The notes: generated by a model from the sequence alone, not told the origin. Shown: positions 17,014-30,545, numbered from the stretch's first letter. The stretch is DNA of 59,628 nucleotides from a virus (IMGVR_UViG_3300034272_000911:1-59628), one strand, 5' to 3'. Numbers and translations are program-made.

Positions 17014-18320
17014 TGGCACAGAGAACGATCGGGGCGATCCTCAACGAGGCGTCTGACAGCGCATCCCGTGACGCTGAGACCAGCCGTCGCGCAGCGATCA
17101 CCAATGTCTCGCTGAAGGGCGAGCTCTCGAATCAGCGCTATCGCGAAGCCGATTTTGCTGACAAAGAAGCGGAGCGCGCTCGGGCGAACGAGTACCGCGA
17201 CGAGCTCAGGAAGGTCTACGACAAGCACCTGTTCTTCGACGAGGTCGTTCCTTCGCAGCAGACCGGCGCCATCCCTGATGCGAGCGGAAACTTCCCTTCG
17301 CAGCAGACGATCAGGAAGTCGTACGAGCCGGGCAGCAGGGAGTGGATGAAGGGGCTCAGCTCCGCGATGGCGGAGAAGAGCTCGCTCGACCTGCGGTACG
17401 GGCTCGCGAAGCCCGAGGACATGAACCAGATGCTGGAGTTCCGCAAGAAGCTCGAAGCGACTGGCGCGAGCGAGGACTTCCTCGCTGCCATGCGCGGCGA
17501 CAAGGGCGCTGCCGCTCGCATCTCTGAGAAGTTCGGCATCTCTGGTCTCCAGTCCATCGAGACCGGGTACGACGACAACGGTCTGCTCAACTTCTTCGCG
17601 ATGACGCAGGGCGCTGGCCCGGGCGGTGCGATGGAGTCGAAGCGCGTCCCCATCGGTCACTTGATGGCTGCGTTCTCGCCCGAGATCGATTCGATGCTCA
17701 AGGCGAACCGCGAGCAGGTGAACGCCACCGACACGCTGGCGACCAGCGCGACCAGTCGTCGCAACCAGACCACGCAGGCGAATGCGAGCGCAACCTCCGC
17801 TGCTGCATCGATGCGAGACGCGATAACCAGAGAGCGCACCTACACCGCTCGCGCAGAGGCTCAGGGCGCACACAACACGCTTTCCGAGAGCGTGAGGGAG
17901 AACGCTGCGTCGTTCAGGCTCCCGCAGTTCACGACCAAGGATGCCACCACCGGCAAGGCTCAGGCTGTGCCGGACGACGAAGCGGCTGGAATCATCAGGG
18001 AGATCGGCGGCGTTCTCATCGGCTTGGATGGGAAAGACGGTGGCATCGCTTTCAACGAAGCTGCTAACGCGCTCACCGCCATCAACACCAAGACTCGCAA
18101 GGATTACGACGCGGAGCTTGCAGCTGCCCGCGCTGCCGACAGCGCCGCGAGACAGAGCGGCGACTCGAAGGTGCGCCGGGAGGCGAGCAACAGGCTGTAC
18201 GAGCTTGAGAGGAACGGCCCGCAGTGGTTCCAGAACCGGCGGCAGGTGTACCTCGAAAAGTGGCGAGCTACCGTCGCAGCCGATAGCGAGCCCTCCAAGT
18301 CAGCTCCCGTGGTGAAGTGA
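17010..18320 (+). CDS. Probable internal virion / ejection protein
   Basis: 436 aa, helical, lies between the S74 protein and the giant protein. Confidence 0.6.
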   Translation: MMAQRTIGAILNEASDSASRDAETSRRAAITNVSLKGELSNQRYREADFADKEAERARANEYRDELRKVYDKHLFFDEVVPSQQTGAIPDASGNFPSQQTIRKSYEPGSREWMKGLSSAMAEKSSLDLRYGLAKPEDMNQMLEFRKKLEATGASEDFLAAMRGDKGAAARISEKFGISGLQSIETGYDDNGLLNFFAMTQGAGPGGAMESKRVPIGHLMAAFSPEIDSMLKANREQVNATDTLATSATSRRNQTTQANASATSAAASMRDAITRERTYTARAEAQGAHNTLSESVRENAASFRLPQFTTKDATTGKAQAVPDDEAAGIIREIGGVLIGLDGKDGGIAFNEAANALTAINTKTRKDYDAELAAARAADSAARQSGDSKVRREASNRLYELERNGPQWFQNRRQVYLEKWRATVAADSEPSKSAPVVK

Positions 18321-21300
18321 TGAGCTCACTCGACCTTCTGCGATCCGTTCTTGAGGAAGACCCGACTGTCGGCACCGGCGAGGCGACTCAGAAGAACCTT
18401 CGCCGTGCGGAGGCGATCAGGCGTGAGTCCGTTCCCGGTCAGCGAGGCGCGCTCTCGACGCTGGACGACGTCCTCAACAGCTCCCCTCCCGAGCCTGCTC
18501 CCGTTCGCGCTCAGGCAATACCTGCCGCTACGGAACCACAGCAGGCGCGTGGCGAGTACCGGGCGTCCGAGTTCGCCGGGGACGCTGGTCGCAAGCTCCG
18601 CGGCGCGCTCGTAGGCGGATCGCTCGGCGTCCCGCAGGGCATTCAGGAAGCCGCCAAGGGAGGTCTGCGCGCCGGTATCAGCGGCGAGTCGCGCCCGGTT
18701 CCGTTCGCTCGCGCTGTCGAGAGCGGCATGAACTGGATCATGGACGCCACCGGCTTCCTGTCGTACGCCGAGCAGGCGAAGAAGCGCGACGAAGCCGTCG
18801 CAACGTTCGACCGTCTGGTCTCGGGCGCGAAGATCCCGGGTCTGGAAGGACTGGCTGAGTACGGCTCCCGCGTGCAGCGCGACATCGAATCCGGCATCTC
18901 GGATGAGGGCAAGCGCCGCATCGAAGGATCCACCCCGCGTGGGAACATCCTCAAGGGCGAGCTCAGCTTCGGCGACGACCCGACGCTCTCAGGCTACGCG
19001 CTGCAGTTCGCCGGGGTGCTCGGCTCAATGGCGCCCACCATCGCGACTGCCATCGCCACCCGCAGTCCGAGGGCGGCTGCTGCTGTCGGCGGCGGTCAGG
19101 CGGCGAACGAAGCCTCCAGCACCGCTCGCGAGTACATCGGCAACCTGTCTGACGAGCAGCTCACCGAGGTCAGCCCGTACTACAACACCCTCATCCGCAC
19201 GGGCATGTCCCCCGAGGAAGCGCGCCAGATCGTCACGGACAAGGCGGCTGAGACGGGCGCCGCGCTCCAAGGCATGGTCGCCGCGGTGGGCTCGCAGATC
19301 ACCGGCAAGCTCGTCACAGGCGCCTACGACAACATCCTGCGCCGAGTGGGCAGGAACGGCGCTGGCGCTACCGCAGCTGGCGCCGCGTTCGGCGCGCTCG
19401 AAGAGGGCGTGCAAGAGACGGCTGAAGGCGTCGCCTCTGACGTCGGCATCCGCTCGCAGATCACGGACAAGGAGATCGGCACCGACTCGGCGGCGAACTT
19501 CGTGCTGGGCGCCCTTGGCGGCGCGGCGGTGGGCGGCGTCAGCGGTGCACGCTCGACCCCCGCGAGCACCCTCGACTCCTACCTGAGCGGAGCCATCGAC
19601 GGCGCCCGGTCGAACCCCGAGGCTGTCACCCGGCAGGCTCGGATGGCCCTCGACCCGAATCGGGACGTGGCGCTCGACCCGCGGGCAAACGTCCGCCCTG
19701 CGGACAGCGAGCTGGGCGACGTCGCCATAACCCCGGGCGCGGCGCCAGACCAACAGTCGAGAACAGCTGTTGCGACCCAGCAGGATCGACCGGAGGACTT
19801 GCAGGGCGGTCAGCCGACCGGCACCCAGACTGTCGCTTCGGCGCAACAGCAGGGGGAGCCCAAGTCGCCCTCGCTGCAGACGCTCGACCAGATCCTGAAC
19901 AGCTCCGAGGAGAGCCTCCTCGCGCAGGTCGACGCGCAGAACCAGCCGCCGCCTGCCCAGCCGCCTGCCCCGAACCAGTCGTTCGTGGACGCCGTGGAGT
20001 CGATCAAGAGCGACCTCGGGATCGACCAGAGCGACACGCTGAGCCTGACCGAGGTCACGGACAACACCCGCCTGAAGCGCTTCAAGAGCGCGCTGGAGGG
20101 CGCTTTCGGCGTGAAGGTGCACTTCGTCGACTTCGGCGAGCAGCTGACCACTGGATCCGGTCGCCAGCTCGGCGCGTTCAACGGGTACCGCCACAACGAC
20201 ACGATCTTGGTGGACGCGAAGGACGTCGACCTGATCAACACCACGTGGCACGAACTGACCCACGTGCTCGAAACCCGGCACGCGGACGTCTACGCCAAGC
20301 TGCGTGACACGCTCGTCCCGAACTTGGATCCCGAGATCCGCCAGAACCTGATCACCGCCCTGAACCAGCGGCGGCAAGCCGAGGTCGGTCGCGACCTGAG
20401 CCAGCAGGAGCTCGACTCCGAGCTGGTGGCGTACGCGGTCGGGGACATCATGCAGAACCCCGAGTCGCTCGGGCAGATGTTCGACAGCTTCGGAGACCCC
20501 TCGGTCGCCAAGCAGTTCCGTGACATCGTCATGGACATCCTCGACAACCTCGTCAAGGTCATCCGCGGCCCCCAGTACATCAGGGAGCAGCAGGCGCTCG
20601 TCAAGGCTCGCAAGTCGGTCATCTCTGCCTTCGCCGAGTACCAGAAGCGCGAGGCTCAGAAGCAGATGGGCGCAGCCCCCGCGGCGCAGCCCACGGCGGC
20701 GCCTGCGGCGGCGCAGGTCGCCACCCCTGCCACGCCCACGGCTCCGGCTGCGACGCCTCAGGGAGCCCCTGCGGCGCCCGTCGCGCAGGCTCCTGCCGCC
20801 ACGCCCACCATCCGCTTCCCGACCGCCGAGGACATGGAGGCAGACGCCAGCGCTGGCGCCGCCCCCACCCCCAACTTCACGGTCTCGTACGCCACGCCTC
20901 AGCCGACAGCTGTGGGACAGCAGCGAACAGCTGTCAGCCCCTCGGGCTCAGAAAATGAGCCTACCGAACAGACCGCGCAGCCTGCAACGACCGGTTCTAC
21001 CGCTGGCGAAAACAGCTCCGGCGGTCAGTTCATGCGCCCGGCGGATCTCAAGGTCACCGGCGAGTTCGCTGGCGAGATGTTCCTGAGGGCTGTCCGCGAG
21101 TCCCCGGCTGAGATGACCGGGCTCTACATCGACTCCTTCGGGCGCGAGATCAACGCCGACCTCGCACGCGAGCTCTCGCCGATCTACCAGCAGAACCCCG
21201 CCGCGTTCGCGTCGTACGTCCACGAAGGCGCGTCTGCTCTGATCAAGCTGGTGTTCGACCAGCTGTTGGCGACAGCGTCGAGCACGGACGTCGTCCGCTT

Positions 21301-24300
21301 CACGGCTGGCGGCGGTGGCTCGGGCAAGGGCTTCGCGCTCGGCACGCTCAATCTCGTCAACGACAGCACGATCATCTACGACGGCACGCTCAGCAAGCTC
21401 GCGACCGCGACGAACCTGATCAACAAGGCGACCGCCGCAGGGCTCACGACCGAGGTCTACTACATCAACGCCGACGCCAAGTGGTCATTCGGCAACGCGC
21501 TCAAGCGCGGCACGACCAAGGGTCGCACGGTTCCTCTGGAGGCTCTTGCCGAGGCGCACTTCGGCGCCGCCAACGTCATCCGTCAGCTGGATGGAATGTA
21601 CAAGGGCAAGATCCTTGTGCGCGTCATCAACAACACCCCGGCGGGTGCTACCTACGGAGCGATCGATGACGTTCCGCGGTATAATCTCGACGAACTGAAA
21701 GGATGGATGTATGAAGAACTCGACCGCAGGGTCAAAGACGGATACCCGCTCAACCTCGCCGCAGGCTTCGCGCCCGACAAGTATTCTGTCGAAGGTCGCA
21801 TCGGAGAGCCCGCCGAACGAAACGATGGAGCAGTTCGAGGCGAGGTACGACGAGGAGATGCTGCGCCGCGTCGCGAGCGCGTCGAACAGCCCGAGCAACC
21901 CGCTGCTCCGGCTCGCGCAGATGGGCGCCAAGAAGGCGTAAGCCAGCCTTCTTCTGCGCCCGAGACGATACCGTCCGGTACGGAAACACAGCAACGGCAG
22001 TACGGGCGCAAGGTAGACGTCAGCCCGGAGCCTAAGCAGCCGAAGAAGCCCGAGATCAAGCGCGCCGGTCGGTTCAGCTACGAAGAGCTGCCGAGCGGTC
22101 GCATCGTCGTGCGCGAACAGGCTAATCGTGTCCGCTCCCTCGTCAGCGATATTGCCAAGGCGTCCAAGTACGACGAAGACGCGATCGCCTTCAGGGCTGT
22201 CGACGCCGCGGCTGTCGTCGAGGCGATGAAGAACGCCCCGAAGGCTGACAAGAAAATCGCCAGAGATATACAGCGTCGCCTCGGTCTCACGGACGAGGAG
22301 CTTAACGCGACCTCCCTTGCGTTCCAGACCGGCGAAGCTGGCAGGCGCGCCTTCGACACCCCGTTCGCCGGAGACCTGACCGACACAGTCGAGTACCTCC
22401 AGAATCGCCGCCTTGAGTCTGGACTCAGGACGCTCAACCTCGCGGAAGAGGCAGACCGCGAGACGCTCGCCAAGCTGGTCACCGCGGAAGTTCTTGCCGC
22501 CATCGGGGCTGGCGAGAACGCTCAGGAATGGTACGACGCGACGATCGCCAAGCTGATGAGCCTCGCCGCCCTGAAGTACCCAGAGCTGGCAACCGACCGC
22601 GAAGCTCAGATGGCTTTCCGCATCGCGATTGCGGTGTCCTCGCAGGGGCTGAACGTCAGGGACAACATCAAGTTCGCGATGGGCGTGTATGCCGACTACC
22701 GAAAGGACGGCAAGTTCCCTGAGCGCGGGTCAGGCGAAAGCGCGGCGAAGATGGCAGGGAACTTCGCGCTCGCAAACGACATGATCGGCAGGCTCGGCAG
22801 GAACGAGTTCATGCGATTCCTTGAGACGCCGTTCACTGCTGGCGAGCTCAGGGCGATGGGTCATAACGTAGACGAGCTCGTCGACGAGATGGTGCTCGGG
22901 TCTTCCATCTTCGGCCCCAAGATCGGGTTTGGCTTCTACTCAAACCTGTCTGGGAACTTCGAGCCAGTCACCATCGACATGTGGTTCATGCGAACCATTG
23001 GTCGCCTGATTGGCGCCCTTCGCGCATTCGACGAAGAGAGGTTCGCGGATCAGCTCCAAACCTTCCGCGGCTCGTTCGAGCAGACAGGCAACGACGGCAT
23101 CTACTCCAGCCAGTTCGATCCCGCCCTCGTCGAGAGGGCGAAGACAGACCGCGAAGCGGCTATCACGCTCGCAAGGTTGGTCGACTCGGCGCACGAAAGG
23201 GACTTCAGTGCCAACAAGGAGTCCTACAAAAACAAAACGCGAGTAAAGAGCAGGTTCGTCAACGCCGCGTCAGCGATGATCATCTCGCTCGACAAGCCGA
23301 AGGACGCCCCGGCGAGCGGCGGGGAGCGGCGGCTTCTGCGCGACGTTGTCCGCAAGGCGGTCGACATGGTCAAGGAAGCACACGGGAGTCGTGTGCCGCC
23401 TGCCGCTTTGCAGGCTCTCATCTGGTATCCTGAGCAGGAGCTCTACAAGTCGCTTGGGGTCGACCTCCCGGTAACCAGTCAGGACTACGCAGGGGCAATC
23501 ACTAAGCTCCTTTTGGAAGAGGGATACGATGAACGAGAACTCAGGGCAGCAGCCGAATCTGGATCAAGACGCGCACGACAGGCGTCTGTTGCAGATGTCG
23601 AGGGAAGAGATCAGGGAGCTCGCCAAGAAAACCGCGGAGGCGGTGAAGGCGAAGGGTCTCGCACGCTCACCCGAAGGGAGCGAGACCGAATTCTCGTCTC
23701 CCGGACGATTCGACGCTATCGAACGGGCGATGCACAAGCACCCCGGGCTTACAAGAGAAAAAGCTCAGGCGATGATGGACGAGTTCGGGTTCTAGATACC
23801 CCAGTCGTTGCGGAGTACCAGCCCGAGCTGGTCTTCAAGAACAGGCTCGGCACGATCGGCAAACCTGCGCCGAAGATGTACGAGCTGTCCGGTGGGGCGG
23901 CTCTGTTCCGCTCCTCCATCCTCTCCGCGAAGAGCGCCAGCCAGTTCGGCGCCGCGGTCAGCGTCTACGATGAAGCCGCCTACGCCACGATGCGCCTGTT
24001 CCTGTCCGAGGACGGCAAGTCTGGCTTCGCGCTCAAGGACGACGGCGACATCGTGTCCGTGTTCAGCGGCACCAAGGGCGCGGCGAACGCCATGCTCCAG
24101 CTCGCTGTGGACGAGGGCGGTCGCAAGCTCGACGCGTTCGACACGATCCTCCCCGAGATCTATGCGGACAACGGGTTCAGGACTGTCGCTCGCACCCCTT
24201 GGGACGAGAGCCAGAAGGAGCCGGACTGGGACAAGTCCGTCTTCCGCGAGTTCAACAACGGCGAGCCGGACGTCGTGTTCATGGTCTACGACCCTGAGAA

Positions 24301-27300
24301 CGCGTCTGAGTCTGGCGGTGAGCGGGTCGCGTCCTACGGCGACGGGCTCGACGCCCAAGCCGCTGCTCTGGAGTCACTCCCCAAGCCCAAGCCCAAGTCG
24401 ACCGGGCAGTTCAGCCGCAAGCTCGTAGAGCTCGCCGCCAACCAAGCGCCCGGGGCTCCCCAGCTCTTCGGGATCAGCGAGACCCCCACTGTTCTGCGCG
24501 CTGTCGGCGCTCCCCGACAGCTGTTCGTCATGGAGGGGAAGAACGTCGCGAAGGTGGTGAACCCGTCGTTCACCGGTCGCGTCAGCGAGGAAGACGGCGG
24601 CGTCCGTCGCAACGCGGCTGGATTCGTCGTCCAGACCGCACGTCGCATCCCGCTCACGGTCGATGAGATCTACGCCGTCCCGCGCCTGATCGCTGACCCG
24701 ATCGCCGTCATCAAGAGCGACGGCAGCAAGCCCGGTCGCCGCTACGGCTACAAGGTCATCATCGGGATGGTCAAGGACGGCTTCCCCGTGGTCGCCATCG
24801 TCCACCCCGACGTCCGCTACGGTGACAACAGAGCCTCGGAGATCGCCAGCGTCTACCCTGTGAACGAGCCCAACTCGCTCGCAGAGATGAACCGCGAGCT
24901 GAACAGCTCCAGCCTCGTCTACTTCGACAAGGGCAAGGCTATGGCGCTCGCAGCGCGCATCGGCAGGAACCTGCCGAGCCTCGCGAAGATCACGCCGACG
25001 CTCGCCAAGACGCCTAACTCCGTCCCCAGCCGCACGCTGCCTGTCATCCCCAACAGCAACTGGATGCGGAAGCTGGAGATCGGCGGCACCGGAGATCCAG
25101 TCGATCCCAACACCGGATTCGCACGCCGCGTTCCCACGCCGGGCAACCGCTTCACCCTGCCTGCTCGCACTCGCAGGGAGCAGTTCGTCGAGAACCTGTT
25201 CGAGAACCGGATGTCCCGCGTCGAGGACATCCAACAGGCTGTTGAACAGCAGGGTGGCACGCTCAGCATCGCGGACGCTCAGGGCAACGTCTTGGGCAGC
25301 ACCGACCTCTCCAGCGCCGTGCAGCGTATGCGTGGCGCCGTCCGCGGTCGCCTCGACCGCTTCAAGAAGGAGGTCGAGATCCCGATCATCGAGGAAGCCG
25401 CCAAGGCTGGCGTGAACCTCGAAGAGGTCGCTCAGTACCTGTACGCCGTGTACGCGCCGGAGCGCAACGCGATCATCCAGCAGCGCAACCCGACGCAGTT
25501 CCAGATTGACGGCGGCTCCGGTATGACGAACGCCGAGGCGACACAGATCGTTGCCAGCTTCCGCGCTCGCCGGAACTTCGCCGACATCCAGCGCATCGCC
25601 AACCGGGTGCGGAACATCTCGGTGATGACGCAGAACCTGCTCCTCGCCGAGGGACTGGTCGAGCCGCAGGTCGTCGCCCAGTGGCGAGCGGACAGCCCAA
25701 ACTACGTCCCGCTGCGCGGCTTCGAGGACTTCGACGAGTCGACCGGCAACCCGCTGGGTGCTGGGTCGTTCGGGCGAATGGATCCGCGCAACCCGTTCGC
25801 TCGCACCGCGAAGGGTCGTGAGACCCGTGCCGGGCAGATCCTTGAGAACATCCTCAAGGACTACTCGGACGCGGTCGTGCTCGCCGAGAAGAACAAGGTC
25901 TACCGCCTGCTCTTGCAGTTCGTGCAGACCAACCCAGACCCAGCGCTCTGGCAGGTCAACGCGCCGAAGGTCTCGCGCTCGTACTACAAGGGCGGCATGA
26001 CCCCGCTCGGCTACGTGCAGGGGACTGTTCGCATCGCCTTTGAGGTGAACGAAGACCCGGCGCAGACCATCGCTGTCCGCGTGAAGGGGCGCCCCGTGTT
26101 CATCCGCGTGCAGGACGAGGGGATGCTGGAAGACCTCCAGCTTACCGGAGCCATCGGCAGCGGCGAGCAGGCGAAGCTCTACTTCCGCGTGTGGTCTGGC
26201 GTGATGCAGACGCTCGCGAAGCTCCGCACCACCCTGTCCCCGGCGTTCGTGTTCATCGACGCGATCCGAAACACCGAGACCGGCGGCTTCTGGAACTTGG
26301 TGAAGTACGGGCCGAAGGTTGCCGGGAAGGCGTATGCGCGCCTGTTCAAGTCGGCACGGGTCGCTTGGAAGGCTGAGCGAGAAGGCACGTGGCAAGGCAA
26401 CAACGACACGATCACCATCCGTGAGCCGGGCCAGCCCCCGCGTACCATCACGCTCAAGGAAGCCTACGACATGTTCCGTGCTGATGGCGGCAAGGTCGGC
26501 TTCCTCGACATCAAGGAAATCGAGGACATTCAGGGCGAGATCCAGCGGATGTTCCGCGCCGCGCAGGTCGCCGGGTCTCTCGACCCGCGCACCTACGGCA
26601 CCCAGCTGGTCAGCATGATCGGCAAGGTCGAAGACCTGATGCTGGATGCGGCTGGCTCGGTCGAGATCGCGATGCGGTTTGCGACCTACATGGCTCGCCT
26701 TGAGGCTGGCGCCAACCGTCAGGAGGCGACCGACGCCGCGAAGAACGTCACGGTGAACTTCGACCGCAAGGGCAAGTGGACGCCGCACCTCGGTCTGCTC
26801 TACATGTTCGCCAACGCCAACATCCAAGGCACGCGTGCGACCTACAACCTGATCTTCAAGTCTGGCAAGGCTGGTCTCGCCCTCGGTGGCGCGCTCGCCG
26901 CTCTCGGGTACGCCATCGCCCAGCTCGGGTCTGGCGTGTCAGGCGATGACGACGAGCCGTACTGGGACAAGCAGCTCTACAAGAACACGAAGATCAAGAG
27001 CCTGCTGTTCTTCACGCCTGACGGGAACACCGTCACGATCCCGATGGCGTACGGCTCGGGCTTCTTCGTCAACCTCGGGTACGCGCTCAGCGACTTGCAG
27101 CGTGGAGTGCCTCTGGCGAAGGTCGCGGCGTTCATGCGCGACTCGTTCTTCACGCACTTCTCGCCGTTCGGCTCTCTGGAGAACCCGGCTACGTTCGCGT
27201 CTCCGACGCTGCTCGACCCGTTCGCGGTCGTGAACATGAACATGACGGAGCAGGGCATCCCGCTGATGCCGGATTCGTCGTTCGAGCCGGGCAAGCCTGA

Positions 27301-27922
27301 CAGCGAGAAGTTCTGGGCTTCGACCCGCGGCACCCTGTTCCAACAGCTGTCGAGCTACATGAACGACAGGACTGGCGGCACGGTCTGGTACAGCGGCGGC
27401 ATCGACGTCTCGCCCGAGACGCTGCGCTACGGGTACGGCTTCCTGACCGGCGGCGCTGGCGGTTTCGCACGCGACCTTGCCGACTCGATCTACCTCTCGA
27501 CTGAGGTCGGTCTGGACGCTGCCGTCGACAAGAACAAGATCCCCATCGTGCGGAGCTTCTACCAGCAGAACACGGGCAAGCAGAATCAGACCGAGTTCTT
27601 CAGGAACGCGGACGAAGCCGTGCGCGCCATGAAAGAGGCGAGCGACCTGTTCTACGCAGAGAAGGGGCGCGAGGAGAAGACCGCAGACCGGCTCCGAGAC
27701 CAGAGGCTGATCGCCGAGCTCGGCTACGCGGTGCAGAGCACGAAGCAGGCTCTAGCCGCCCACCGAGAGGAGGAGATCCGCATCGTCGAGCGGCGCACGA
27801 ACGGCAGCATCGACGCCGCGACTGCGGAGGAGATGCTCTCTCGGATCGCCAAGGAAAAGGACAAGCTCTACACGGACTTCAACCGCGAGTTCTACAGGGC
27901 GAACCCCAAGACCCCAGATTGA
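18317..27922 (+). CDS. Giant polyvalent virion/ejection protein (HExxH peptidase, zeta-toxin-like kinase, HhH-glycosylase-like, GNAT-like, MuF-C/PBECR-like, LPD38-like)
   Basis: 3201 aa. Motifs: WHELTH (~20250); INAD..AGGGGSGKG..IYDGT..R...GRTVP (~21140-21560); GPKIG..VTIDMWFMR..QALIW (~22910-23430); DGDIVSVF..GGRKLDAFDT..YADNGF..GEPDVVFM (~24040-24290); IADPIAVIKS..IASVYP (~24690-24860); VTVNFDRKG..YMFANA..IPMAYG..IDVSPE C-terminus. Confidence 0.85.
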   Translation: MMSSLDLLRSVLEEDPTVGTGEATQKNLRRAEAIRRESVPGQRGALSTLDDVLNSSPPEPAPVRAQAIPAATEPQQARGEYRASEFAGDAGRKLRGALVGGSLGVPQGIQEAAKGGLRAGISGESRPVPFARAVESGMNWIMDATGFLSYAEQAKKRDEAVATFDRLVSGAKIPGLEGLAEYGSRVQRDIESGISDEGKRRIEGSTPRGNILKGELSFGDDPTLSGYALQFAGVLGSMAPTIATAIATRSPRAAAAVGGGQAANEASSTAREYIGNLSDEQLTEVSPYYNTLIRTGMSPEEARQIVTDKAAETGAALQGMVAAVGSQITGKLVTGAYDNILRRVGRNGAGATAAGAAFGALEEGVQETAEGVASDVGIRSQITDKEIGTDSAANFVLGALGGAAVGGVSGARSTPASTLDSYLSGAIDGARSNPEAVTRQARMALDPNRDVALDPRANVRPADSELGDVAITPGAAPDQQSRTAVATQQDRPEDLQGGQPTGTQTVASAQQQGEPKSPSLQTLDQILNSSEESLLAQVDAQNQPPPAQPPAPNQSFVDAVESIKSDLGIDQSDTLSLTEVTDNTRLKRFKSALEGAFGVKVHFVDFGEQLTTGSGRQLGAFNGYRHNDTILVDAKDVDLINTTWHELTHVLETRHADVYAKLRDTLVPNLDPEIRQNLITALNQRRQAEVGRDLSQQELDSELVAYAVGDIMQNPESLGQMFDSFGDPSVAKQFRDIVMDILDNLVKVIRGPQYIREQQALVKARKSVISAFAEYQKREAQKQMGAAPAAQPTAAPAAAQVATPATPTAPAATPQGAPAAPVAQAPAATPTIRFPTAEDMEADASAGAAPTPNFTVSYATPQPTAVGQQRTAVSPSGSENEPTEQTAQPATTGSTAGENSSGGQFMRPADLKVTGEFAGEMFLRAVRESPAEMTGLYIDSFGREINADLARELSPIYQQNPAAFASYVHEGASALIKLVFDQLLATASSTDVVRFTAGGGGSGKGFALGTLNLVNDSTIIYDGTLSKLATATNLINKATAAGLTTEVYYINADAKWSFGNALKRGTTKGRTVPLEALAEAHFGAANVIRQLDGMYKGKILVRVINNTPAGATYGAIDDVPRYNLDELKGWMYEELDRRVKDGYPLNLAAGFAPDKYSVEGRIGEPAERNDGAVRGEVRRGDAAPRRERVEQPEQPAAPARADGRQEGVSQPSSAPETIPSGTETQQRQYGRKVDVSPEPKQPKKPEIKRAGRFSYEELPSGRIVVREQANRVRSLVSDIAKASKYDEDAIAFRAVDAAAVVEAMKNAPKADKKIARDIQRRLGLTDEELNATSLAFQTGEAGRRAFDTPFAGDLTDTVEYLQNRRLESGLRTLNLAEEADRETLAKLVTAEVLAAIGAGENAQEWYDATIAKLMSLAALKYPELATDREAQMAFRIAIAVSSQGLNVRDNIKFAMGVYADYRKDGKFPERGSGESAAKMAGNFALANDMIGRLGRNEFMRFLETPFTAGELRAMGHNVDELVDEMVLGSSIFGPKIGFGFYSNLSGNFEPVTIDMWFMRTIGRLIGALRAFDEERFADQLQTFRGSFEQTGNDGIYSSQFDPALVERAKTDREAAITLARLVDSAHERDFSANKESYKNKTRVKSRFVNAASAMIISLDKPKDAPASGGERRLLRDVVRKAVDMVKEAHGSRVPPAALQALIWYPEQELYKSLGVDLPVTSQDYAGAITKLLLEEGYDERELRAAAESGSRRARQASVADVEGRDQGARQENRGGGEGEGSRTLTRRERDRILVSRTIRRYRTGDAQAPRAYKRKSSGDDGRVRVLDTPVVAEYQPELVFKNRLGTIGKPAPKMYELSGGAALFRSSILSAKSASQFGAAVSVYDEAAYATMRLFLSEDGKSGFALKDDGDIVSVFSGTKGAANAMLQLAVDEGGRKLDAFDTILPEIYADNGFRTVARTPWDESQKEPDWDKSVFREFNNGEPDVVFMVYDPENASESGGERVASYGDGLDAQAAALESLPKPKPKSTGQFSRKLVELAANQAPGAPQLFGISETPTVLRAVGAPRQLFVMEGKNVAKVVNPSFTGRVSEEDGGVRRNAAGFVVQTARRIPLTVDEIYAVPRLIADPIAVIKSDGSKPGRRYGYKVIIGMVKDGFPVVAIVHPDVRYGDNRASEIASVYPVNEPNSLAEMNRELNSSSLVYFDKGKAMALAARIGRNLPSLAKITPTLAKTPNSVPSRTLPVIPNSNWMRKLEIGGTGDPVDPNTGFARRVPTPGNRFTLPARTRREQFVENLFENRMSRVEDIQQAVEQQGGTLSIADAQGNVLGSTDLSSAVQRMRGAVRGRLDRFKKEVEIPIIEEAAKAGVNLEEVAQYLYAVYAPERNAIIQQRNPTQFQIDGGSGMTNAEATQIVASFRARRNFADIQRIANRVRNISVMTQNLLLAEGLVEPQVVAQWRADSPNYVPLRGFEDFDESTGNPLGAGSFGRMDPRNPFARTAKGRETRAGQILENILKDYSDAVVLAEKNKVYRLLLQFVQTNPDPALWQVNAPKVSRSYYKGGMTPLGYVQGTVRIAFEVNEDPAQTIAVRVKGRPVFIRVQDEGMLEDLQLTGAIGSGEQAKLYFRVWSGVMQTLAKLRTTLSPAFVFIDAIRNTETGGFWNLVKYGPKVAGKAYARLFKSARVAWKAEREGTWQGNNDTITIREPGQPPRTITLKEAYDMFRADGGKVGFLDIKEIEDIQGEIQRMFRAAQVAGSLDPRTYGTQLVSMIGKVEDLMLDAAGSVEIAMRFATYMARLEAGANRQEATDAAKNVTVNFDRKGKWTPHLGLLYMFANANIQGTRATYNLIFKSGKAGLALGGALAALGYAIAQLGSGVSGDDDEPYWDKQLYKNTKIKSLLFFTPDGNTVTIPMAYGSGFFVNLGYALSDLQRGVPLAKVAAFMRDSFFTHFSPFGSLENPATFASPTLLDPFAVVNMNMTEQGIPLMPDSSFEPGKPDSEKFWASTRGTLFQQLSSYMNDRTGGTVWYSGGIDVSPETLRYGYGFLTGGAGGFARDLADSIYLSTEVGLDAAVDKNKIPIVRSFYQQNTGKQNQTEFFRNADEAVRAMKEASDLFYAEKGREEKTADRLRDQRLIAELGYAVQSTKQALAAHREEEIRIVERRTNGSIDAATAEEMLSRIAKEKDKLYTDFNREFYRANPKTPD
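21680..21685 (+). promoter_or_regulatory. Internal -10 element (TATAAT) upstream of nested ORF 1
   Basis: Perfect TATAAT 25 nt before ATG 21711, with an AAGGA RBS in between. No good -35. Confidence 0.5.
21711..21941 (+). CDS. Nested (+1 frame) 76-aa protein, candidate antitoxin for the zeta-like domain
   Basis: AAGGA RBS 7 nt upstream. The 3' half has phage-typical GC3 codons (MEQFEARYDEEMLRRVAS) while the main frame degenerates to R/G/E/P-rich linker. Confidence 0.6.
   Translation: MKNSTAGSKTDTRSTSPQASRPTSILSKVASESPPNETMEQFEARYDEEMLRRVASASNSPSNPLLRLAQMGAKKA
23529..23795 (+). CDS. Nested (+1 frame) 88-aa protein, candidate immunity protein for the glycosylase-like domain
   Basis: GAGG RBS 6 nt upstream; helical protein ending HPGLTREKAQAMMDEFGF; the main frame here is an R/G-rich linker. 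Confidence 0.7.
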   Translation: MNENSGQQPNLDQDAHDRRLLQMSREEIRELAKKTAEAVKAKGLARSPEGSETEFSSPGRFDAIERAMHKHPGLTREKAQAMMDEFGF

Positions 27923-28254
27923 CACAGGAGGAAACCGTGACGCTGAAGAGCGCCATACCGAAGAGCTTCCAGCTGTGCGGTCACCAGATCGCCGTCCGCA
28001 TCGTCCCGAAGCCGAAGTGGCAGTACAAAGGCGACGTCGGCTTCTGGGACTACGCGAACCTGAGGATCGATCTCGTCGCCGGGCAGCAGCCTAGCGTCGT
28101 GATGCAGACCTTCTGCCATGAGTGGGCGCACGCCATGCTGGAGATGATGGCTCACCCGCTCGCCCGAGATGAGCGATTCGTCGACCAGCTCGGACATCTG
28201 TTGCAACAGTCCCTCTCAACCTTCGAGTACCCCAATGCAGCCAAAGGCAAGTGA
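27919..28254 (+). CDS. Small HExxH zinc metallopeptidase-like protein
   Basis: QTFCHEWAHAML..DERFV; start may be GTG 27937 after GGAGG. Confidence 0.7.
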   Translation: MTQEETVTLKSAIPKSFQLCGHQIAVRIVPKPKWQYKGDVGFWDYANLRIDLVAGQQPSVVMQTFCHEWAHAMLEMMAHPLARDERFVDQLGHLLQQSLSTFEYPNAAKGK

Positions 28255-29335
28255 CGCAGAGATCATCGCAGCCCTGACCGCCAACCGCGGAGTCAGGGTT
28301 CTCGCCGCCCAGACCCTCGGGATCGCCCTGAGGACGCTCCAGTCGCGCATCATCGGGCTGAAGTCCAAGGGCGTCGCCATCCCCGAGTCGAGCTACCAAG
28401 GACACAAGGACTACCTCGCCCGCGTCGGCGACCCGCCGCCGAGACCGCCTCCGCAGCAGGAGCTGGAGTTCCCCCGCCTGCCGGACGGCAAGATCGACGT
28501 GCGCGAGCTCATCGAGCGGCGCAAGCGCGAGTTCGACCGCAAGGACGAGGCGGCTCAGGCGCGCAAGCTCATCCCCATCAAGGTCAAGACCGACCAGCCG
28601 ATCGCCGTCTGCCTGATGGGTGACCCGCACGTCGACGACCCCGGCACCGATCTGGGCGCTCTGGAGCGCGAGATGGAGGTCATCAAGGCGACCCCGGGCA
28701 TGTACGCCGGGTGCGTCGGAGACCTCCAGAACAACTGGATAGGGCGTCTGGCGAGGCTCTACGCGGAGCAGGAGACCACGGCGAGCCAGTCATGGCAGCT
28801 GGTCGAGTGGTTCGTGAACGACCTGTCCGGCAAGTGGCTGTTCATGGTCTCGGGGAACCATGACCACTGGGCGGGGTCAGGCGACCCGCTGCGCTGGATC
28901 CAGCGGCAGGCGGCGGTCGACATGACCGGCGACCACACCGTCAGGCTCGCCCTGCGGTTCGCGAACGGCGCGGAAGTCCGCATCGTCGCCCGGCACGACT
29001 TCCCCGGGAACAGCATGTGGAACCCCAGCCACGGGCAGCTGCGCGCCGCCCACCTGACCCACCACGACCACGTGCTGGTCTCGGGTCACAAGCACACCGG
29101 GGGCTACCAGCTCATCCGTGTGCCAGCCACGGGGATGCTCGCCCACTGCCTCCAGCTCGGCGCCTACAAGCGCCACGACGCCTACGCGGACGCGCTGGGG
29201 CTCCCGCCGCGGATGATCTCCCCCAGCGCCACGGTCATCATCGACCCGAAGGCGAACGAGCTCGGGATCGTCAGGGTGGAGCACGACATCGAAGCGGCGG
29301 CAGACTGGCTCACGTGGAGGCGAAGACGGGCGTAG
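28235..29335 (+). CDS. Calcineurin-like metallophosphoesterase with N-terminal HTH
   Basis: GDPH, GDLQN, GNHD, RH, GHKH motifs; N-terminal AAQTLGIALRTL HTH. Confidence 0.85.
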   Translation: MQPKASDAEIIAALTANRGVRVLAAQTLGIALRTLQSRIIGLKSKGVAIPESSYQGHKDYLARVGDPPPRPPPQQELEFPRLPDGKIDVRELIERRKREFDRKDEAAQARKLIPIKVKTDQPIAVCLMGDPHVDDPGTDLGALEREMEVIKATPGMYAGCVGDLQNNWIGRLARLYAEQETTASQSWQLVEWFVNDLSGKWLFMVSGNHDHWAGSGDPLRWIQRQAAVDMTGDHTVRLALRFANGAEVRIVARHDFPGNSMWNPSHGQLRAAHLTHHDHVLVSGHKHTGGYQLIRVPATGMLAHCLQLGAYKRHDAYADALGLPPRMISPSATVIIDPKANELGIVRVEHDIEAAADWLTWRRRRA

Positions 29336-29488: not shown

Positions 29489-30502
29489 CTACGCTGCCAC
29501 ACCTCCCACGCTTTCCCCACGCACCCCCACAGCTGTTGGGATGCTGTTCCCGACGTACTGCCGCGTCCCCTCCGCGGCGAGGTGGGCGTACCGGTTCACC
29601 ATCTCCAGACTCGCCCAGCCGCCCAGCGCCTTGAGCGTGAGCAGCGGCGTCCCGTTCATGGCGTGGTACGAAGCGAAGGTGTGCCTCAGGTCGTGCCAGC
29701 GGAAGTCGTCGATCCCGGCTCGCTTGAGGGCTTTCCTCCACGCCGTGGTGTTCGCCCTGCCGACCGGATGCCCGTCGTAGGTGAACACGTAGATCGGGTG
29801 CTGCCCCTGCTCGCCCTTCAGGATGGCGACCGCTGACTCGCTCAGCGGGATGCCGTGATCGCGCCCGGACTTGTAGTCCGACGACGCCACCCACAGCAGC
29901 CTGCGGTCGAGGTCGACCCTGTTCCACTTGAGTCCGGTGACGTTCGACATCCTGAGCCCAGTCAGGACGGAGAACTCAGCCATGACCTTCAAGTGGTGAG
30001 GCAGCTCGTCCATGAGCCTGCCGAATTCCTGCTCCGACAAGAACCGCACCCTACGGTTGCTGACCTTGTACGGCTTCATCTTCACCGGGTTTGCAGGAAC
30101 CCACTTCCATTCAACAGCCCTGTTGAACAGCGACTTCACGAACTTCAGGTAGTGGTTGGCGTTCGACGCCGTGGTCTCGGCTTTCTTCAGCTCGACCACC
30201 GCTCGCACTTCGTCTTCCGTGATGGTCGCGAACACCTTCCCCGCCCAATGCCCGTTCAGCCACCGCACCATCGACTCGTCCCGGTCAAGGGACTTCTTGT
30301 CGGTGCGTTCGCGCAGCCACCTCTCCGATGCGTCCTCCCACGTTGGAAGCTTGGAATGCCCAGCCTTCAACTGCGAGACGCGCATCGCGTGGTACAGCTT
30401 CGCTTTTTCACGGTCTCCCGTACCCGTGGATTCACGGATTCGTTTCCCGTCTGGATCACGCACTTCGATCCAGTAGACGCTGCCTCTCAGGTACATGCTC
30501 AT
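29489..30502 (-). CDS. int: Tyrosine integrase
   Basis: TGLRMSNV, HDLRHTFAS, LGGWASLEMVNRYAHL; AGGAG RBS before ATG 30502. Confidence 0.95.
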   Translation of the reverse strand: MSMYLRGSVYWIEVRDPDGKRIRESTGTGDREKAKLYHAMRVSQLKAGHSKLPTWEDASERWLRERTDKKSLDRDESMVRWLNGHWAGKVFATITEDEVRAVVELKKAETTASNANHYLKFVKSLFNRAVEWKWVPANPVKMKPYKVSNRRVRFLSEQEFGRLMDELPHHLKVMAEFSVLTGLRMSNVTGLKWNRVDLDRRLLWVASSDYKSGRDHGIPLSESAVAILKGEQGQHPIYVFTYDGHPVGRANTTAWRKALKRAGIDDFRWHDLRHTFASYHAMNGTPLLTLKALGGWASLEMVNRYAHLAAEGTRQYVGNSIPTAVGVRGESVGGVAA

Positions 30503-30545
30503 GTGAACTCCTAGCGCAGCGTCCACGTACCCGGGCGGGACAATA

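Follow-up and report, generated by a model that had tools for sequence, protein, structure and literature searches.

Small genes overprinted in the +1 frame on linkers of a giant polyvalent phage protein and the preceding domains that their products may mask

The complete viral record IMGVR_UViG_3300034272_000911 (59,628 bp; this whole stretch is called the window here) contains a giant gene for a polyvalent virion protein (18317..27922, + strand, GTG start, 3201 aa in the ORF list and its translation), inside which two small open reading frames (ORFs) share its strand and are read in the +1 frame. One of them, ORF2 (23529..23795, +, 88 aa), is, judged by its sequence, a real overlapping (overprinted) gene under purifying selection, and its product is predicted to bind the conserved main-frame domain that ends where it begins, termed domain X (22088..23533, +). 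The other, ORF1 (21711..21941, +, 76 aa), directly follows a Zeta-toxin-like domain and is a candidate overlapping gene with moderate support. It is proposed, with a probability of about one half, that the nested proteins bind the domains that precede them and mask these until ejection.

Codon bias changes frame at two places in the giant gene

Both ORFs are present where the first-pass annotation of this DNA had placed them, and each has the spaced ribosome-binding site that it had described: a Shine–Dalgarno-like (SD-like) AAAGGA (21698..21703, +) 7 nt before the ATG of ORF1, whose counterpart in two related contigs (L127/L128) is GAAGGAG, and GAGGGA (23519..23524, +) 4 nt before the ATG of ORF2. 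The annotation had also expected a switch of codon bias to the +1 frame at these two places only, and a per-frame plot of G+C content at third codon positions (GC3) agrees, bar one weak interval. Over the whole gene GC3 is 0.83 in the main frame, 0.65 in the +1 frame and 0.47 in the +2 frame, and the +1 value exceeds the main-frame value by more than 0.1 in three places: 21662-22037 (maximum excess 0.43), 23372-23852 (0.36) and, weakly, 18482-18677 (0.16), the last of which was judged to be a shadow. Across the first two, main-frame GC3 falls to 0.4–0.6 as that of the +1 frame climbs to 0.8–0.9.

In its alternative frames the giant gene has 46 stretches that stay open for 50 codons or more (19 in +1 and 27 in +2), and a clear GC3 win over the main frame is found in two of them, 21699-21941 (0.84 vs 0.55) and 23475-23795 (0.72 vs 0.45). 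No further alternative-frame stretch clearly beats the main frame; an open +1 stretch of 96 codons at the 5′ end (18324-18614), R/S/P-rich and with a GC3 of 0.78 vs 0.71, was rejected as a gene. A codon-usage log-odds scan of the gene flagged 21782-21961 and 23522-23806 only, and the same scan flags the homologous places in three high-GC relatives. An assembly frameshift error can be excluded because contigs of other runs match the region exactly: one of them (X3 record 1) shows 0 differences and 0 gaps relative to the window over 21500-23797, and smaller pieces (X4-X6) are identical as well. The contigs from other runs being identical over both ORFs, no variants within the population were found for estimating the ratio of nonsynonymous to synonymous substitution rates (dN/dS).

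ORF2 is conserved and evolves as a gene in its own frame

A first sample of ORF2 was picked through its own peptide (two called homologues, 45 loci), and in all 45 loci the homologue occupies the +1 frame of an enclosing ORF on the same strand, which is 500 to ∼3900 codons long in the 43 viral loci (several are cut at the contig end) and 172 codons long in two metagenome contigs. Because that sample had been selected through ORF2 itself, loci were refetched by the upstream main-frame domain alone (alignment A2), yielding 80 loci, 79 of them assessable by length. A +1 ORF of 47–100 codons stands at the end of the domain in 78 of these 79, a distant relative (L121) being the exception, against a background of 11 per cent (6275/55840) for stop-free +1 windows of the same length upstream in the same genes. 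The ORF begins with ATG in 61 and with GTG in 5 of 67 unique sequences (66/67), its start falls at an identical offset in 59 of them, and a purine-rich SD-like box (GAAGG/GAGGG/GGAGG) is kept in relatives 4–9 nt before the start. A conserved +1 ORF or a stand-alone homologue had been proposed as a check on homologous domains in other phages, and both are found, free-standing homologues being described below.

Selection changes frame over the same interval. Estimates of dN/dS were pooled Nei–Gojobori (NG86) values, a method not built for overlapping frames, although the flanks, as internal controls, behaved as they should and the difference between frames is large; the 50 codons upstream of ORF2 gave 0.06 in the main frame and 1.68 in the +1 frame, ORF2 codons 2–32 gave 0.19 in the nested frame and 1.78 in the main frame, the last 27 codons (in the 88-aa subclass) gave 0.36 nested and 1.04 main, and directly past the ORF2 stop the main-frame value is back to 0.27. 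Over ORF2 the main frame reads as a variable R/G/E/Q-rich linker and, at 1.78, evolves like one free of constraint, as had been surmised from its composition; within the overlap it need only stay open. This constitutes clean, multiply replicated dual coding, in which selection moves sharply from one frame to the other, and would add to the few verified overlapping genes in DNA phages.

Programmed +1 ribosomal frameshifting, which would make the +1 segments alternative C-termini of truncated giant-protein isoforms, is compatible with two segments that share the strand of the main ORF, are read in its +1 frame, come straight after a domain and terminate in a stop. It does not sit well with a start codon and SD-like box that are retained at the residue where conservation begins (in 66 of the 67 unique sequences), with a +1 frame that is closed 0–5 codons upstream in many loci, or with free-standing proteins that start at profile position 1. 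In one relative (L050) a +1 stop directly abuts the ATG, and initiation is for that reason favored over frameshifting. A word-index search for longer proteins (155–2000 aa) returned none, which is weak evidence, and an exhaustive profile search did find longer proteins that bear the module, none of them joined to domain X. Frameshifting was accordingly rejected for both ORFs, the chance that it underlies them being very remote.

Neither Pfam nor PHROG contains a match to ORF2, tblastn of ORF2 against phage GenBank records returned no match, and blastn of 21000-24200 against phage GenBank returned just short matches to minor capsid genes of Microbacterium phages, which lie downstream of the finding. 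A collection of ∼15 billion proteins does not contain the exact ORF2 sequence. To our knowledge gene callers never report nested same-strand ORFs, and for this reason a conserved layer of proteins in phages has escaped notice.

Predicted binding of the ORF2 product to the most conserved surface of domain X

Domain X is a conserved main-frame domain of ∼480 aa with 67 invariant columns among 51 sequences (alignment A3). Its AlphaFold2 model is all-alpha, with a predicted local distance difference test score (pLDDT) of 88.9 and a predicted template modeling score (pTM) of 0.80. Its 14 structural neighbors in BFVD are all uncultured phage proteins, seven of which are named as polyvalent-type; DUF7178 is an Atlas lead only, and a sequence search of the PDB gave a single chance match (E 0.18). 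The domain is widespread in uncultured phages. The claim that each nested ATG falls at the end of a recognizable enzymatic domain therefore fails for ORF2, domain X being without a Pfam, PHROG or PDB match.

The conserved N-terminal module of the ORF2 product, ∼45 residues long, follows domain X in three downstream contexts. In context A, the type of the window, the homologue runs to 85–89 aa and ends ...GLTREKAQxMxDEFGF; in context B the giant ORF stops ∼145 nt after the module; and in context C another domain comes next. This distribution supports the view that ORF2 travels with domain X as a cassette. A domain-plus-immunity cassette inserted mid-protein, with the immunity gene overprinted on a linker, had been proposed for this gene; the joint travel of ORF2 with its domain and the overprinting of a linker hold up, and that the small proteins are immunity proteins is what we infer.

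Modeling of each domain with its peptide had also been proposed, and the pair of domain X and the ORF2 product gave interface scores (ipSAE) of 0.81, 0.80 and 0.81 in three runs, compared with 0.00 for the best of three controls. The runs share at least 53 per cent of their contacts, and the pLDDT of the ORF2 product in the complex is 58–62. In a calibration of the tool 58 of 80 solved complexes attained that mark, as did 2 of 110 mismatched pairs, counts that apply only roughly here, where our own, uncalibrated alignments were supplied and where the complex score expresses model confidence. The predicted contact region on the ORF2 product covers residues 4–45, its conserved part. On domain X, invariant columns make up 20 of the 48 confident interface residues and 47 of the 434 others (odds ratio 5.9, p = 4e-7), and the predicted interface takes in the motifs SQG..N, FGPKIGxGF and PVTxDMWF. 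The model thus places the ORF2 product on the most conserved surface of domain X, with the footprint to be expected if the protein covered a functional site.

The same conservation, selection and predicted binding would also fit small proteins that bind their domains not as inhibitors but as chaperones for folding or packaging, or as cofactors of a structural or activating kind, possibly co-packaged. Domain X, lacking a Pfam, PHROG or PDB match, is without known toxicity, and the free-standing two- and three-module proteins described below could tie several domains together like a scaffold. A footprint on invariant, active-site-like motifs rather than on a peripheral surface is less easily accommodated by such roles, as are the membership of one preceding domain in a toxin family (Zeta) and the survival of the small ORF beside a decayed domain X in two contigs, which is more readily explained by an orphan gene with a protective function. 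On balance a chaperone or cofactor role is unlikely, at something over one chance in four.

The modules also occur as proteins in their own right

An exhaustive profile search with the ORF2 module returned 105 representative clusters at E<=1e-3, mostly free-standing small proteins that start at profile position 1. In P0033, P0041, P0045, P0059, P0069, P0078, P0095 and P0113 the ORF2 module shares one frame with the module of a third nested family (see below); P0105 carries all three modules in one frame, and P0027 has the ORF2 module, then the third module and then a further domain. Contexts sought with P0027, P0013 and alignment A10 in viral and genome contigs brought nothing new. In two contigs (L045:2745-3002 and L046:1231-1488) an intact, free-standing ORF2 homologue stands after a truncated, degenerate remnant of domain X in the same frame, where WYPEQELYK has become WLLGQEFYK and a stop falls five codons before the ATG; this small ORF looks like an orphan copy. 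Since free-standing, multi-module and orphan forms exist, the modules appear to function as polypeptides in their own right and, by their sequences, are real polypeptides elsewhere.

Such forms also bear on the possibility that the nested proteins serve mainly in superinfection immunity, guarding lysogens, or cells with free-standing multi-module versions, against the injected effectors of related phages. An integrase marks the phage as temperate, single- and multi-module homologues stand free in metagenomes, and an intact small ORF sits beside the degenerate domain X in the two contigs just named. On the other side, a scan of 21300-24000 for sigma-70-like promoters gave 0 sites, and the ORFs lie inside a late structural gene; a principal role in superinfection immunity seems improbable.

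ORF1 follows a Zeta-toxin-like domain

The main-frame domain directly upstream of ORF1 (21134..21709, +) is a Zeta-toxin-like P-loop domain (Pfam PF06414), which scores 41.2–47.8 bits against a cutoff of 22.3, in a match that spans profile positions 98–178 of 199 only. A glycine-rich P-loop (GGGGSGKG) is visible in its translation, and the segment is 62 per cent identical to the homologous segment in related contigs (L023/L127). ORF1 starts 36 codons past the end of the Pfam match (aa 1096) and one codon past the aligned segment 21134-21709, and its GC3 is 0.86 in its own frame vs ∼0.5 in the main frame.

Whether ORF1 is a gene in use or a fossil, formerly the 3′ end of a separate Zeta-domain gene or the product of a compensated frameshift, with a +1 periodicity that has not yet decayed, turns on its few relatives. 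Several observations count against a working gene and agree with a fossil. A homologue was found in one other lineage only (contigs L023/L127 and L128, in a scan based on the Zeta domain), a word-index search returned no called homologue, and ORF1 has no match in Pfam or PHROG. Over codons 39–67 the pairwise ratio of nonsynonymous to synonymous differences (pN/pS) is 1.1–1.2 in the nested frame and 0.8–0.9 in the main frame, so that no purifying selection is seen, in a comparison of a single lineage pair that has little power and in which very high GC3 limits synonymous change and may depress pS. Over codons 10–38 the main frame is constrained (0.45) and the nested frame is at 1.08, and the N-terminal half is shadow-like: the reading of the nested frames as ordinary helical proteins does not extend to residues ∼1–38 of ORF1, which are S/T/P-rich over main-frame-constrained codons. 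The comparison of selection in both frames that had been suggested at the outset thus favors ORF2 (0.19 nested vs 1.78 main) and not ORF1.

A fossil would nevertheless be hard to reconcile with the retention of the ATG, the SD-like box and the TAA stop in L127/L128 at ∼65 per cent nucleotide identity. In the homologue GC3 is 0.82–0.94 in the nested frame vs 0.34–0.41 in the main frame, and its nested values of 0.91–0.94 in the relative stand above the 0.67 of ordinary coding sequence in that genome. Up to the stop of ORF1 the sequences of L127 and L128 are near-identical, and immediately past it they are unrelated, from which it appears that the end of ORF1 is a module boundary, with recombination exactly at the stop. 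A +1 ORF is also present at the same position after other Zeta-like domains, as set out next. A fossil origin was rejected for ORF2 and seems a small chance for ORF1, which is somewhat more probably a functional gene than not.

Unrelated nested families follow other domains in relatives

Related Zeta-like domains were fetched via the main frame only (40 loci), and in 37 of the 40 they are followed by a +1 ORF of ∼50–66 aa with its ATG at a fixed offset and an ending of ...SLAGxxTP. The first 12 codons of this Zeta-adjacent family are constrained in the main frame (dN/dS 0.25 main, 0.79 nested). From codon 13 to the end the nested frame gives 0.53 and the main frame 1.07, a modest contrast from an alignment that was built on the nested peptides and is biased to that extent. 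ORF1 itself has no detectable similarity to this family. In one subgroup (L134, L135, L137, L139, L141 and L158, at about 2054-2236) the nested ORF ends ...FKDGLDLSNYNSR and the giant ORF stops ∼170 nt later, so that even a C-terminal domain retains its nested gene.

A third +1 family (MPVRxxTxEE...GxVIFGQK...) is absent from the window; in class C relatives it stands past the domain that comes next after the ORF2 homologue (L018:10784-10972, the same place in L015, L023:10784-10957 and L041:10781-10924). The main frame over this family also looks conserved (LRxxxRxLRAEA...), and it may be a case of true dual coding.

Profile comparisons among the nested families found no relation, which leaves at least three unrelated ones. 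As distinct families, unrelated by profile comparison, follow distinct domains, each domain type appears to have its own nested partner, and these relatives support a generalization of the idea of a domain with a nested partner of its own. A broader rule can be offered as a tentative possibility: each effector domain would carry the gene for its own masking protein, read in the +1 frame of the linker next to it on the downstream side, and free-standing multi-module proteins such as P0105 and P0027 could be multi-specific shields against injected effectors, like the poly-immunity proteins of lysogens, hosts and rival phages. We hold this rule to be less likely than its failure, at close to one chance in three.

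A proposed masking role for the nested proteins

The arrangement might be understood as follows. A giant multi-domain protein is probably packaged and ejected by a temperate phage, and two of its interdomain linkers are overprinted by small +1 genes, each with an SD-like box and an ATG at the end of the preceding domain. Ribosomes would initiate internally on the shared late mRNA to make the nested proteins. The N-terminal ∼45 residues of the ORF2 product (M-x-N-x-S-x-QQPNLDQD-x-HD...) would bind the invariant surface of domain X non-covalently and mask it during synthesis and assembly of the giant protein, and ORF1 would likewise mask the Zeta-like P-loop domain, as epsilon masks zeta. Being a separate chain, the partner would be left behind when the giant protein unfolds and threads out of the capsid, and the domain would become active only in the newly infected cell. 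Within this proposal inhibition, release on ejection and an equivalent role for ORF1 are drawn by analogy and are accordingly put forward as suppositions.

A number of points weigh against masking, among them the approximate nature of the selection estimates and of the complex score, noted above with the values. The toxicity of the domains is an assumption, and for domain X a Foldseek search against the PDB gave nothing at E<=1e-3 and searches of Pfam and PHROG gave no family match. The most distant relative of domain X (L121:3322-3920; 48 per cent identity, 46 per cent G+C) has several +1 stops and no nested ORF, and the overprint is either younger than domain X or has been lost in L121. No RNA run was found to contain the region, translation of ORF1 and ORF2 is predicted from their sequences, and supplying an inhibitor at a 1:1 ratio by internal initiation within a heavily translated ORF would need efficient initiation.

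If the small proteins do mask the adjacent domains, this would explain how a potentially self-harming effector chain can be synthesized and packaged, and why its effectors would be switched on only after ejection. Each nested peptide would also mark a functional domain and its conserved working surface, and so provide a handle on polyvalent proteins, including domain X.

Relation to known systems

In phage lambda the spanin gene Rz1 is embedded in Rz in the +1 frame. Accounts of this two-component system describe an embedded gene pair whose products form a complex (PMC5295617; PMC6139136). The likeness lies in a small gene with a start of its own that a larger phage gene fully encloses in the +1 frame, and in products that form a complex (here a predicted one). 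The differences are that the N-termini of ORF1 and ORF2 (MKNSTAGSK... and MNENSGQQPN...) have no lipobox, signal peptide or hydrophobic stretch and their products appear soluble, that the host gene encodes a multi-domain virion protein, that several unrelated nested genes occur in relatives, and that the role is not lysis. An embedded spanin of the Rz/Rz1 type was ruled out, there being no lipoprotein signal in either ORF.

In colicin–immunity complexes the inhibitor is co-synthesized with the toxin, bound to its cytotoxic domain and shed when the toxin is translocated. These complexes serve as a working analogy only, with no relation in sequence or gene order, and shedding on ejection is in the present case conjectural. 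In the epsilon/zeta type II toxin–antitoxin system epsilon precedes zeta. There too a Zeta-family P-loop domain is linked to a small protein, here ∼50–76 aa, that could mask it; ORF1 and the Zeta-adjacent family are nevertheless without detectable similarity to any Pfam family, and their gene order is reversed and overlapping.

Polymorphic and MuF toxins offer a parallel in organization, in that a toxin-type domain of modular build is closely coupled to a small co-travelling ORF, and the giant gene also has a MuF_C domain. Small ORFs next in line after MuF toxin genes have been proposed to be immunity genes, in the text that describes them (PMC5576092). There the immunity gene comes after the stop of the toxin gene and after a C-terminal toxin domain, whereas the small genes considered here overlie, in the +1 frame, linkers within a single unbroken ORF, and both the toxicity of the domains and neutralization by the small proteins are presumptive. 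The polyvalent proteins of Iyer et al. (2017; PMC5512222) resemble the giant protein in being large and multi-domain, in LPD38 and MuF_C and in lying in a virion gene module; nested partner genes are no part of the class as the main text describes it, in which the words 'overlap' and 'frameshift' each occur 0 times. Embedded +1 genes whose products bind the product of the host gene are thus already known, as are toxin domains with adjacent immunity genes. A search of the literature (main texts) turned up no account of polyvalent proteins whose internal linkers are overprinted by partner genes, in keeping with the first-pass annotation, which knew of no description of the nested arrangement.

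Genomic setting and possible host

The window has direct terminal repeats at its ends and a G+C content of ∼65 per cent, and its genes include those for terminase, a portal/adaptor, a major head protein, an internal virion protein, a tail fiber and a virion structural protein. The giant gene stands in this structural module, after the genes for the internal virion protein, the tail fiber and the virion structural protein. Pfam matches within its product are Zeta_toxin (aa 1019–1096), MuF_C (aa 2112–2208) and LPD38 (aa 2884–3060); among PHROG profiles, aa 231–532 resemble the N-part of the virion RNA polymerase profile phrog_2206 and aa 2298–3196 match phrog_14770/616/10691. With LPD38, MuF_C and neighbors from the structural module, the protein fits the polyvalent class (Iyer et al. 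2017), the designation that it had been given at first sight. The next main-frame domain after ORF2 (23939..24283, +; aa 1875–1989) matches phrog_2563, which has no assigned function (E 1.4e-16).

Downstream of the giant gene lie a DNA repair exonuclease-like gene (28169-29335) and then, 1.6 kb from its end, a tyrosine integrase on the opposite strand (29489-30526, −; phrog_1, E 6.6e-65), on account of which the phage is held to be temperate. DNA of the window is present in lake-water metagenome runs. The arrangement of domain X with a nested ORF is also seen in a 5.4-kb contig (L171) that was binned with a metagenome-assembled genome labelled Rhodoferax sp., and this contig and the lake-water runs together give a weak lead to a freshwater betaproteobacterial host.

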